Shown here piece after piece: positions 1-3,220 of a stretch of DNA of 3,487 nt (the stretch's first letter is position 1; every line of letters begins with the position of its first letter). Under the pieces are notes generated by a model. That model saw nothing but the letters and a program-made list of their open reading frames with translations, had not been told where the DNA came from and ran no database searches. Source of the stretch: Escherichia coli (lineage in GTDB: Bacteria; Pseudomonadota; Gammaproteobacteria; Enterobacterales; Enterobacteriaceae); the NCBI RefSeq assembly GCF_003334335.1, contig NZ_QOWQ01000084.1; one strand, given 5' to 3'. The position numbers and the translations under genes are program-made.

Positions 1-977
1 GTCAGAAATATACGGCCGGCAAGGTGTGGAGCTGAGCCGTTCACTGCTGTCGGGCTGGGTGGATGCATGCTGCCGGCAGTTGTCTCCGCTGGAAGAGGCG
101 CTTCATGGCTATGTGCTGACTGACGGTAAGCTCCATGCTGATGACACGCCTATCCCGGTGCTGTTGCCAGGCAATAAGAAAACGAAGACCGGGCGGTTAT
201 GGACCTACGTTCGTGACGACCGTAACGCCGGGTCAACGCTGGCGCCGGCGGTGTGGTTCGCTTACAGCCCGGACAGAAAAGGCATCCATCCGCAGACCCA
301 TCTTGCGGGGTTCAGTGGTGTACTGCAGGCGGATGCATACGCCGGGTTCAACGAGCTGTACCGGGATGGCCGGATAACGGAAGCCGCCTGTTGGGCTCAC
401 GCCCGCCGTAAAATCCACGATGTGCACGTTCGCACCCCGTCAGCCCTGACGGAGGAAGCGCTGAAACGGATCGGCGAACTGTACGCCATCGAGGCAGAGA
501 TAAGGGGAATGACGGCGGAGCAGCGCCTTGCCGAACGTCAGTTGAAAACGAAACCGCTGCTGAAATCCCTGGAAAGCTGGCTGCGTGAAAAGATGAAAAC
601 CCTGTCGCGACACTCAGAACTGGCGAAAGCGTTCGCATACGCCCTGAACCAGTGGCCGGCGCTGACGTACTATGCAGATGATGGCTGGGCTGAGACGGAC
701 AATAACATCGCTGAAAATGCGTTGCGGATGGTCAGTCTGGGCCGCAAAAACTACCTGTTCTTCGGTTCGGATCATGGAGGAGAGCGGGGAGCGCTGCTGT
801 ACAGCCTGATCGGGACGTGCAAACTGAACGGAGTGGAGCCAGAAAGCTACCTCCGCTATGTCCTTGACGTCATAGCCGACTGGCCGATAAACCGGGTCGG
901 CGAACTGCTCCCCTGGCGCGTAGCACTGCCGACTGAATAACACATCCCCGTCAATACGGTTCTTGCTGCACGCTTAC
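1..977 (+). mobile_element. IS66-family insertion sequence, right (3') end; inferred terminus near 977
   Basis: Transposase gene ends at 940. The minus-strand reading of 962-977 is 5'-GTAAGCGTGCAGCAAG, and IS66-family ends are recalled to begin 5'-GTAAGCG. The flanking minus-strand gene appears interrupted exactly here. The boundary is inferred and could be off by a few bp. Confidence 0.65.
2..940 (+). CDS. IS66-family transposase, C-terminal portion (5' end outside the window)
   Basis: Reading frame is open from position 2 with no upstream stop, so the gene is truncated by the window edge; stop TAA at 938-940. The C-terminal sequence ...[52 protein letters not shown]...ELLPW matches the conserved C-terminal signature I recall for IS66-family transposases. 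The ORF track's GTG at 26 is probably not the real start. Confidence 0.88.
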
Positions 978-1164
978 CCTTCTGTTGCTCACTCAGGGCA
1001 TGTAAATCATGCTCAAACCACGCCCCCTGAGCATCTGTCTGCAGAATCAACCGGCCATGACAGGAAAGGCAGAAACAATGCCGGATATTTCTGCTGAGCG
1101 CAGAGTCGGCACTGATAATGTGCTCACCCGGCGTGATCCCCAGCCCCGTTTTTATACCGTTCAT
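978..1164 (-). pseudogene. N-terminal fragment (~62 codons) of a second zinc-ribbon protein, paralogous to the 1161-1544 gene, apparently disrupted by the IS66 insertion
   Basis: ATG at 1164-1162 overlaps the TGA of the upstream gene (ATGA coupling). The product MNGIKTGLGITPGEHIISADSALSRNIRHCFCLSCHGRLILQTDAQGAWFEHDLHALSEQQK shares a C-x2-C-(14-15 residues)-WFEH motif with the upstream protein. The computed ORF (856-1164) continues into IS66 sequence, which is taken to be a fortuitous read-through. Confidence 0.45.
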
Positions 1165-1544
1165 TCTGCTACCCCCTCCTCACTGAAACGCCCGGTCTGG
1201 CAGTGTGTGCAGTACTGCTCCCCATAATAATCGTGGTGACATTGCCTGCAGTACCAGCTGGCTTTACGTACCACGGGTAAGGCATCCGGGACGAATTGCT
1301 GCAGACGTTTAATCAACCGTATTTCTCTGCGTTCCGGCCTGACATAAGGACATTGCTGCGCGTGCTCCGTCAGCCCGTCGTCAGTGTGTTCAAACCAGGG
1401 CCGTTCGGTGTCGTATTGCGGGTGGTATCTGAGTGCACTGCCGCAAAGGTGGCAGGTGTAGTGGGCATAAGGAGCAGTCTGTGCGGTACGGGCACCGATC
1501 AGACGTCCGTTGCCATCAAGTGCGAGAAAAGATTTTGCGTACAT
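1161..1544 (-). CDS. Small double zinc-ribbon protein (127 aa) with CoiA-N-terminal-like CxxC...WFEH motif
   Basis: ATG at 1544 with GAGGA about 10 nt upstream on the minus strand. N-terminal module YAKSFLALDGNGRLIGA...CHLCGSALRYHPQYDTERPWFEH resembles the N-terminal zinc ribbon of CoiA-like proteins (CPxC...HFAH). C-terminal module CRQCHHDYYGEQYCTHC is a second CxxC-x9-CxxC knuckle pair. No nuclease domain is present. Confidence 0.6.
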   Translation of the reverse strand: MYAKSFLALDGNGRLIGARTAQTAPYAHYTCHLCGSALRYHPQYDTERPWFEHTDDGLTEHAQQCPYVRPERREIRLIKRLQQFVPDALPVVRKASWYCRQCHHDYYGEQYCTHCQTGRFSEEGVAE

Positions 1545-1710
1545 AGTATATGTTCCTCTGCGCCAGACGACACGCAGGCAACAGCCGTCCCGGTACGGGC
1601 AGCGTGGTCAGGTGTGAATGGCGGTTTTCAGTTCAGTCTCAGAAGGGAAAATCAGTGTGGTCGCTGTGAACACGTCATCACACTAAGGTCAGATAAGTCG
1701 TCTGTCGGGC

Positions 1711-2280
1711 TCAGCCACGACTGCAGCCAAAATTGCGCTCACCGGTGCCGTAAGCTTTGGTACTCTCCTTCGCCAGATAGTCAGCACGCTCCAGCACCTG
1801 CTGAAAGCCGGTGTCATCATCGCGTTCCAGCCACACCGCCGGCCTGACCGGAAAATGTGCCAGCGTGTCATAACGTCCGGCATCCACTCCCAGGGCACTG
1901 CACCACGCCTGTTTAATCATCCCGGCCAGTGATCCCGGAGCGCGGTAATCGCCGGCACGACACCAGGTATCCCGGTTGACCAGCAGCATCAGGTGATAGT
2001 GTTTTTTACCTTTGCACTCCCCAAACTCCCGGGCCCAGACGTAATGCAGGGTTGTGGGATGCACGCGTTTACCTTCCCGATGCTTACGTTTCTGGTAAGC
2101 GTCGATTCGGGCTTTCAGGGCATTGATGAAGCGGGATATCACAGCTGCGTCCGTTGCTGCCGGTACATCCGGGAGACGCAGGTCAACCCGCAATGCCGTC
2201 AGGCGGGGATGAACATTCAGTGCGTGCCGCACCGTCTCACGAATACGTTGCTGCCAGAAGGGGTTGTATTTGTAGGTCAT
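1711..2280 (-). CDS. HUH-motif rolling-circle Rep-like protein, YagK/YfjJ (Inovirus Gp2-like) family (189 aa)
   Basis: ATG at 2280 preceded by GGAGAT (revcomp of 2287-2292); stop TGA at 1711-1713. Product starts MTYKYNPFWQQRIRETVRHALNVHPRLTALRVDLRLPD, as I recall for YagK/YfjJ cryptic-prophage proteins. It contains HYHLMLL (HUH motif 2) and ADYLAKESTKAY (YxxK-type motif 3). The track's extension to 2316 lacks an ATG or RBS and covers the hairpin, so 2280 is the preferred start. Confidence 0.7.
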   Translation of the reverse strand: MTYKYNPFWQQRIRETVRHALNVHPRLTALRVDLRLPDVPAATDAAVISRFINALKARIDAYQKRKHREGKRVHPTTLHYVWAREFGECKGKKHYHLMLLVNRDTWCRAGDYRAPGSLAGMIKQAWCSALGVDAGRYDTLAHFPVRPAVWLERDDDTGFQQVLERADYLAKESTKAYGTGERNFGCSRG

Positions 2281-2289
2281 GGTTAAATC

Positions 2290-2308
2290 TCCGTATGGTT
2301 CATACGGA
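2290..2308 (-). promoter_or_regulatory. Perfect 8-bp inverted repeat (TCCGTATG-GTT-CATACGGA) overlapping the Shine-Dalgarno of the HUH-protein gene
   Basis: Read directly from the sequence. The 3' arm on the minus-strand mRNA contributes the GGA of the GGAG ribosome-binding site, 7-10 nt upstream of ATG 2280. Confidence 0.35.
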
Positions 2309-2441: not shown

Positions 2442-2481
2442 AAAAAACAGGTTACGGATAAGGCGTGGAGAGGGAGCGATC

Positions 2482-2676
2482 GTGATATGCAAAAAGAAGT
2501 GCAGGGACTGTGGTAACGCAATTACTCATAATACAGTATGTTGCCCGTATTGTGGCGCTGTCGACCCCTTCGGTTATTACCGGAAGACCGATCGTCTGCT
2601 CTGTTTACTGACGTTACTGCTGCTGCTGATTCTGGTTACCGTTTCAGGCGTCAGTGTATTTGTACTGTTGCAGTAG
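2482..2676 (+). CDS. Small zinc-ribbon protein with C-terminal transmembrane helix (64 aa, GTG start)
   Basis: GTG at 2482 lies 5 nt after GGAGAGGGAG (2467-2476). Product MICKKKCRDCGNAITHNTVCCPYCGAVDPFGYYRKTDRLLCLLTLLLLLILVTVSGVSVFVLLQ has a CxxC-x10-CPYC zinc ribbon followed by a roughly 25-residue hydrophobic segment. Stop TAG at 2674-2676. The track's TTG at 2413 coincides with the predicted -35 box and is unlikely to be the start. Confidence 0.5.
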   Translation: MICKKKCRDCGNAITHNTVCCPYCGAVDPFGYYRKTDRLLCLLTLLLLLILVTVSGVSVFVLLQ

Positions 2677-2702: not shown

Positions 2703-2736
2703 CGGCGGGGCAGAGCGACCCGCTGCGTTTGTTGTG
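2703..2736 (+). terminator. Candidate intrinsic terminator downstream of the small zinc-ribbon gene
   Basis: 7-bp GC-rich stem (2703-2709 pairing with 2719-2725, one G-U pair), 9-nt loop, then a T-rich but interrupted tail CGTTTGTTGTG. Confidence 0.3.
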
Positions 2737-2792
2737 CCAGACAGTAACGCACCGGCTCCCTGCAAAATGGTACCTGAATCAATCACAGTCAG

Positions 2793-2829: not shown

Positions 2830-3220
2830 TCAGCCCCGACAAATACGAGTCCCCTTCAGAAGATACAGGCCGGTAATGCCTGAACGCCTGCCCCTCTGTA
2901 CACCATTCCCTTTTGATTTCGAATTCTTTGTTGCCGTTATACTGCTTAATGTTCCCGATCTTCCGGTGCACAGATAACACCGGAGTCATCGTAGCGCGGA
3001 TTCAAGATTCAGGTGACATATTTCCAGACGGAAGCCGGCACGCGATCGTAAAGTTTGTTCATTGTCAGTTCTGCCAGCCGGTGATCGACCGCAGAGTTAA
3101 AGGCTTCCAGCTCCGCAGGGGTAAGTTTATAACGTGTGTGGGAAATCACTTTTTCCAGCGTCTCCCGGGATGAACAACGACGGAACTGCTCTGGTTTTAA
3201 CTTCCATTCGTCTCTCGTTA

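Follow-up and report, generated by a model that had tools for sequence, protein, structure and literature searches.

The stretch of DNA analysed in the present study, called the window throughout, comprises 3,487 nucleotides of Escherichia coli (contig NZ_QOWQ01000084.1 of assembly GCF_003334335.1) and is part of a genomic island; at least 80% of the window is found in 541 complete genomes, and the best matches are 99.9% identical. Its genes and remnants are the following.

26-940, plus strand: 3' part of an IS66 transposase gene (annotation)
856-1164, minus strand: second zinc-ribbon gene, truncated by IS66 (annotation)
1161-1544, minus strand: gene for a 127-aa protein with DUF7828 and Zn_ribbon_11 (domain search), the first gene downstream of the proposed promoter
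1545-1710: intergenic gap of 166 bp, between the HUH-gene stop and the zinc-ribbon ATG
1711-2280, minus strand: gene for a 189-aa HUH protein, 'inovirus Gp2 family', with YagK_YfjJ_C and REP_ORF2-G2P (domain search)
2479-2676, plus strand: 65-aa zinc-ribbon/TM ORF (annotation)
3009-3149, minus strand: Hha remnant (annotation)

The HYH and YLAK motifs of the HUH protein are invariant in 13 orthologues. Farther out the island carries AlpA-like, YfjI (P4-alpha-like), GTPase and Ag43 genes, and this gene set is the backbone of the P4-type 'CP4' islands. The island of the window has been degraded by IS66 and IS3. The segment from the HUH gene to the zinc-ribbon genes is present in 4,054 of the 5,426 complete E. 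coli genomes (about three quarters of them) with a median of two copies, and the module is also found across Enterobacterales. Neither the HUH nor the zinc-ribbon proteins bear a functional name in NCBIfam, PADLOC or PHROGs, a literature search on YagK/YfjJ returned nothing useful, and the K-12 yagK locus was rejected as a counterpart because its arrangement is not homologous. In the complete modules (L050 1039-1830, L052 39-830 and L002 637-834) a second, divergent YagK/YfjJ HUH gene lies 3' of the two zinc-ribbon genes; it consists of a 65-aa ORF and a 188-aa ORF, and in the window IS66 stands at this place. A hairpin, CCGTATG-AAC-CATACGG (2291-2307, minus strand), adjoins the RBS of the HUH gene, and a relic of this hairpin, with the RBS and a short ORF, is contained in the 369-nt gap of L050 (2885-3253), which shows that copies of the module have recombined.

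At 1665-1682 of the gap the plus strand reads TGTGAACACGTCATCACA, an imperfect palindrome of the form TGTGA-N8-TCACA, and the minus (coding) strand TGTGATGACGTGTTCACA. Read in the direction of both flanking genes (minus strand), the dyad comes 29-46 nt past the HUH stop codon and about 120 nt ahead of the zinc-ribbon ATG. The first-pass annotation had placed the dyad here, within the 1545-1710 gap, and its sequence and coordinates were reproduced exactly. The precise pattern TGTGA-N8-TCACA occurs once against an expectation of 0.01, being a pattern picked after the fact; TGT-N12-ACA occurs once in the window (TGTGATGACGTGTTCACA) against 0.7 expected. A perfect 5+5 inverted repeat with a spacer of 3-12 nt is present in 70% of the shuffled gaps, the real gap having two of them, and thus the dyad on its own proves nothing. 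A literature search for TGTGA-N8-TCACA found nothing. The dyad is real, and it gains significance solely from its context.

The late promoters of phage P2 and of its satellite P4 have no usable -35 element, and Ogr (P2), delta (P4) and Pag (PSP3) are small zinc-finger activators of the CX2CX22CX4C type that bind TGT-N12-ACA centred near -55. The dyad, written as TGT-N12-ACA, thus has the consensus of the Ogr/delta-activated late promoters of P2 and P4, and this is the informative reading, in place of the CRP half-sites in which it had first been framed. The same motif is also used by PpsR/CrtJ in purple bacteria. Four Ogr-dependent late promoters of P2 share the TGT-N12-ACA consensus, Ogr being a zinc-finger protein (PMC3931495), and delta of P4 is an Ogr homologue, both proteins activating the late genes of P2 and P4 (PMC8628076).

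The P2 record annotates activator-binding sites and starts for PP/PO, PV and PF, and the dyad aligns onto P2 17555-17583, annotated as 'activator binding site; activation of pF promoter'. With the two dyads aligned, the window and P2 PF share 43 of 84 positions, ungapped, from the dyad downstream. No other of the 67,020 placements tried in P2 does as well (mean 21, sd 4.0), and when, reciprocally, the PF segment is placed along the 27-kb island L001, this register again comes out best of 54,808; the binomial tail for 43/84 is 2e-7 to 2e-6. The matched bases take in the TGTG of the dyad. An identical 9-mer, AACTGAAAA (positions -17 to -9 of P2 PF), follows the dyad in the window and in P2, at a distance of exactly 31 nt in both, and farther on the two sequences share CCAyTCAC around the annotated start and then ACCACG. 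A fixed-register matrix of 84 columns was derived from six P2-family PF promoters, those of P2 and of the five P2-like phages fiAA91-ss, STYP1, PSP3, MDG45 and EtG; scored with it, the dyad register is the highest of the window and of L001, with or without P2 among the promoters, and none of 1.54 million unrelated positions reaches its score. The 62 columns downstream of the dyad alone give z = 4.3-4.5, a value attained at two of 54,852 positions, one of which is the dyad site. The other late promoters examined, PO and Psid, show 22-28 identities out of 84 with the window, so the relationship is specifically with PF. BLAST and nhmmer miss the similarity, which is spread too thinly for them: a BLAST search with the gap matched none of 50,697 phage records, nhmmer with a PF-promoter profile did not reach the dyad region at E<=10, and blastn-short of 19 leaders against P2 and P4 did not recover PF. 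The PF similarity rests on the ungapped, fixed-register tests.

PF and its homologues in fiAA91-ss, STYP1, PSP3, MDG45 and EtG have a TGT-N12-ACA-type element in the same place as the window and no -35, and the consensus scan recognised none in the gap; these phages also have a terminator with a T-run just upstream, a feature that is seen in related lineages of the module. In contrast, the dyad fits poorly to the extended activator site, scoring -5.9 bits on the 26-column PF-family activator-site matrix (z about +1.8; background -19.3, sd 7.4), and this low score arises because the left arm is AGTGTGA in the window and GTTGTGc in PF, and because the CAAATAGC box of the PF family is missing in the window. 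In the PF and PO sites of P2 itself the right arm also deviates (GCCA). The Psid sites of P4, TGTGTCAGGGCTGGCACA and TGTCCGGTGTACGTCACA, share with the dyad the form TGTG-N10-CACA / ...TCACA, the likeness to Psid and PLL may extend to function, as a promoter borne by a satellite and answering the late activator of its helper, and the island belongs to the P4-type family; however, there is no overall similarity to Psid (25-28 of 84), no sid, delta or psu gene lies near the gap in the annotated island, and the module encodes no delta-like protein.

By this alignment the elements of a putative promoter directed to the zinc-ribbon genes can be placed as follows.

1665-1682, minus strand: dyad, TGT-N12-ACA; proposed Ogr/delta-family activator site, centred at about -57 from the predicted start
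1625-1633, minus strand: AACTGAAAA, -10 region by homology to P2 PF
1612-1622, minus strand: predicted start region, at about 1615/1616, by alignment to the annotated P2 F-operon start 17626-17628; CCATTCACAC corresponds to CCACTCACCC of PF
1545-1616, minus strand: predicted 5' UTR of the zinc-ribbon operon, containing GGGACGG-N5-GCCTGCGTGTCGTCTGGCG and the Shine-Dalgarno sequence GAGGAA (1553-1558)

Aligned to the annotated start of the P2 F operon, the centre of the dyad would fall at about -57.5, the same geometry as in PF. The -10 hexamer given by homology is GAAAAC, whereas PF has GAAAAT and the PF family GAAAAT or GACAAT, the most conserved T thus being lost in the window; TGAACT, 5 nt upstream, is an alternative. 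A consensus scan of the gap found no sigma-70 -35/-10 pair, as expected for an activator-dependent promoter. While PF is followed by a leader of 25 nt and the tail-sheath gene, the window has a conserved leader of about 70 nt and the zinc-ribbon genes. A direct repeat was also observed on the minus strand, its copies 53 nt apart: TTCACAGC-GACCACACTG at 1652-1670, which holds the right arm of the dyad, and TTCACACCTGACCACGCTG at 1600-1618, in the predicted start region. The core promoter may have been duplicated in part.

The last 90 nt or so before the zinc-ribbon ATG (1545-1637, minus strand) are conserved in all compared lineages (L008-L015 and L057-L108 are among the loci that show this), with the consensus AACTGAmCCGCCATTCACA ... 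GGGACGG-N5-GCCTGCGTGTyGTCTGGCGGTAAGGA. Between E. coli and the other genera this 90-nt leader is 68-77% identical and the flanking coding sequences 65-70%. The conserved leader is also present in 52 metagenome and 2 viral-collection loci, these having been retrieved by a pattern taken from the conserved block, by which part of their sequence is fixed. A coding function was rejected, since the leader carries indels of 1, 2 and 4 nt, which are not multiples of three and mark it as non-coding. A structured RNA was rejected as well: RNAalifold on 45 leaders gave -4.7 kcal/mol and no compensatory pairs, the test being limited by the pattern-based retrieval, and inspection by eye of two candidate pairings, the long-range helix CCGCCA/UGGCGG and the hairpin GCUGCCC...GGGACGGC, showed G-U-compatible or disruptive changes only. 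An Rfam scan of the window gave nothing in the gap at E<=1. The conserved leader appears, from its resemblance to the phage sequences, to begin with a PF-like core promoter.

In one leader variant, 27 nt (CTGTCCGCCTTTCAGGGACGGCTTACG, L076 3427-3453) match the antisense strand of the gene for P4 alpha, the primase (L115 6394-6420), at 89% identity; this similarity, with E = 2.5e-4 in a 45-kb search, may be chance or a relic.

The gap exists in E. coli in two forms, type A of 165-167 nt, which is the form of the window and is found in 2,116 genomes (E. coli Nissle 1917 and ATCC 25922 are examples of strains with the window allele), and type B of 259-369 nt. Among 13 type-A copies the left arm TGTGA and the CACACTGATTTTCCC flanking it downstream show no variation. 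The right arm is TCACA, TCACG or TCATG and the spacer TGACGTGT, TGACGCGC, TGACGCGT or TGACATGT, spacer and right arm together being the most variable stretch of the segment. TGT-N12-ACA is intact in the window allele and in L053, L054 and L110-L113, and it is broken in the TCACG and TCATG alleles. Type B gaps read TGTGACAACCACAGTGCTGTAACA, with the right arm gone, and the dyad is absent from them and from other genera and most relatives. The left arm is part of yTAGTGTGACAACC, a motif conserved among distant relatives, and the full TGT-N12-ACA recurs in seven of these relatives with freely varying spacer sequences; the distance from TGTG to the core promoter in relatives is, by our own count, 41, 61 or 69-76 nt. 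To judge from the PF sequence of EtG, TGTTGTGCCAACC, yTAGTGTGACAACC probably corresponds to the left half of the activator site.

The other genera compared include Hafnia, Superficieibacter, Tenebrionibacter, Siccibacter and Kosakonia, and in these a canonical intrinsic terminator (GC hairpin plus T6-7), an alpA-like gene and a 44-aa CPRC...CPVC ORF lie between the HUH gene and the conserved leader of the zinc-ribbon genes. Since the 166-bp gap of E. coli contains none of the three, it looks like a deletion derivative. The arrangement of a terminator, an alpA-like excisionase/regulator gene (70-80 aa) and a CxxC ORF is found in L008 (3568-4255), L010, L012, L014, L015, L009 and L007. In the type B gap of L005 (1864-2122) the extra 94 nt hold GTTGTCTGGCGGCAACGATGTAT, which resembles the 3' end of the conserved leader and the start of the zinc-ribbon gene (GTTGTCTGGCGGTAAGG...ATGTAC), as if another leader-gene unit had been deleted.

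We propose, tentatively and at somewhat less than an even chance, that the dyad is an activator site located near -57 of a PF-derived promoter with its start near 1616 and a conserved leader of about 70 nt. The dyad would occupy the activator-binding position of a promoter homologous to that of the tail-sheath operon of P2, the layout on the minus strand being TGTGATGACGTGTTCACA (1682-1665), a 31-nt spacer, AACTGAAAA (1633-1625), the predicted start near 1616, the leader and the zinc-ribbon genes. An activator of the Ogr/delta type, provided in trans by either a P2-like prophage or a satellite resembling P4, would bind the dyad and recruit RNA polymerase, and the zinc-ribbon operon of the P4-type (CP4-like) island would consequently be expressed once a P2-like phage enters its late phase. 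Neither the proteins of the module nor the neighbouring 190-aa protein contain an Ogr_Delta domain or resemble Ogr, so that the activator would have to come in trans, as for P4; ogr homologues are present in 2,210 of the 5,426 complete E. coli genomes, which makes such a supply possible. The in-register PF similarity of the dyad and of the following 65 nt or so strengthens the suggestion of the first-pass annotation that the zinc-ribbon genes may have a promoter element in the dyad, with promoter function itself being a matter of inference; the other suggestion of that annotation, an internal operator in the sense of a repressor site, found no support. Should the promoter be real, a common and uncharacterised set of island genes would gain its first testable regulatory input, the Ogr/delta proteins of P2-like phages and P4-like satellites, the module would be placed in phage-satellite or anti-phage biology, and a promoter of P2 structural genes would have been co-opted outside P2 and P4.

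The main rival, and a serious alternative given the polymorphic right arm and the degenerate -10, is that a PF-type promoter has decayed in this segment, or that the dyad arose fortuitously in a deletion scar, and that the segment has no activity of its own, the zinc-ribbon genes being co-transcribed with the HUH gene because the window allele has lost the terminator that separates these genes in other lineages. The dyad would then be no more than a commonplace palindrome, produced by chance in an island undergoing decay. Chance alone indeed leads one to expect a 5+5 inverted repeat in this gap, the right arm varies between alleles, the final T of the -10 is lost, the 166 bp have neither the terminator nor the alpA-like gene nor the 44-aa CxxC ORF of other genera, and the island has been eroded by IS66 and IS3. 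However, the register-exact similarity to PF lies far beyond chance, the core promoter and leader are conserved across genera at least as well as the coding sequence, and the left arm with its flanking CACACTGATTTTCCC is invariant in all 13 type-A copies. We regard this alternative as rather unlikely.

A smaller probability is attached to an element acting in RNA, on the HUH transcript, as a weak terminator, an attenuator or a stabiliser of the 3' end of the HUH mRNA. The structure concerned is the following.

1652-1689, minus strand: alternative RNA hairpin UUAGUGUG-(19 nt)-CACACUGA, then UUUUCCC, with the left arm of the dyad in its 5' strand and the right arm in its loop

The left arm is predicted to pair with CACACU downstream, in an 8-bp stem followed by U4, or alternatively with the right arm. 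In the E. coli copies the stems of the hairpin are invariant and its loop is variable, the GUGUG/CACAC pairing is, by our own reading, kept through G-U changes in L067 and L072, and a short stem with a YUUWCC tail recurs in other lineages; the long stem of L003 reaches -13.4 kcal/mol (z -2.6). In the window allele, however, the long stem has -9.9 kcal/mol and z -0.9, no better than shuffles, the dyad hairpin has z -0.1 and the whole gap z -0.08 against shuffles, and L071, L073, L084 and L089 keep TAGTGTGACAA without a complementary strand. As in a Rho-independent terminator, a stem followed by UUUU stands past a stop codon, but the stem of the window is AU-rich, with a 19-nt loop and an energy like that of shuffles. 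The terminator scan called no GC-rich stem directly followed by a U-run in the gap, the 1652-1689 hairpin included, and the earlier statement that the gap holds no obvious terminator is thus borne out for the window allele; Rfam likewise has no match in the gap. We consider an RNA element improbable.

It is very improbable that the dyad serves a host regulator, be it CRP on half-sites 8 bp apart, a regulator recognising a TyrR-like box, or QseF at an upstream activating sequence that feeds a sigma-54 promoter. Both arms are perfect CRP half-sites, the same 5-bp sequences as in the CRP site TGTGA-N6-TCACA, with a spacer of 8 bp in place of 6; a class of CRP sites with 8-bp spacers was reportedly proposed in the older literature. 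The match to the TyrR-like box TGTAAA-N6-TTTACA is 9 of 12 by eye. CRP was nevertheless rejected, in agreement with the earlier opinion that this is probably not a canonical site: the two possible N6 registers have 3 mismatches each (7 of 10 core bases), and N6 matches with 3 mismatches are at chance level in the window (15 observed, 13.5 expected). Moreover, the right half-site varies between E. coli alleles, type B gaps have other sequence in place of the dyad, and other genera lack it. The QseF upstream activating sequence is TGTN12ACA and acts at the sigma-54 promoters glmY and rpoE P2 (PMC6075780); the minimal consensus is the same as that of the dyad, but the latter is single, against three sites, and without a sigma-54 promoter downstream, the only match to -24/-12 (TGGCAC-N5-TTGCW) in the gap having 3 mismatches (11 such matches in the window, 18 expected). 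The CRP, TyrR and QseF models all leave the in-register similarity to PF unexplained. Equally hard to sustain is a hairpin or origin-like nick site of the adjacent HUH protein, a reading for whose rejection conservation is the only ground. Hairpins close to their own gene are frequent targets of HUH enzymes, and the HUH (HYH) and YxxK motifs of the upstream gene are intact, but nowhere does the segment vary more than in right arm and spacer, the loci with type B E. coli gaps and those of other genera conserve the HUH gene and lack the dyad, and the stem has just 5 bp.

Returning to the proposed PF-derived promoter, a second candidate element was found in the window. The sequence TGTTGTGCCAGACAGTAACGCACCGG at 2730-2755 (plus strand) scores 20.8 bits on the PF-family activator-site matrix, by a wide margin the highest value in the window and in the 27-kb island, and further E. 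coli copies have conserved the sequence. It appears to be a near-canonical PF-type activator-binding site, and the regulatory system proposed for the dyad would thus have one or more additional elements in the island. By our own reading, the minus-strand hexamer GATAAT (2696-2691) would give a leftward start near 2684, with this site at about -57. It is possible, though doubtful, that the HUH/zinc-ribbon module is an unrecognised helper-sensing cassette of P4-type islands, wired through the PF-derived promoter at 1616-1682 and the 2730-2755 site. If so, the module would be switched on only at the late transcription of a P2-like phage, either for a satellite ride, perhaps with HUH-initiated replication, or for interference with the phage, that is, defence.

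Some minor observations concern the surroundings of this second site. A GC hairpin at 2706-2724 precedes it, and the candidate leftward start near 2684 faces the HUH and zinc-ribbon genes, running antisense to the 65-aa ORF. The reverse complement of the site, TGGCACAACAAACGCA, is 2 mismatches away from the sigma-54 consensus.
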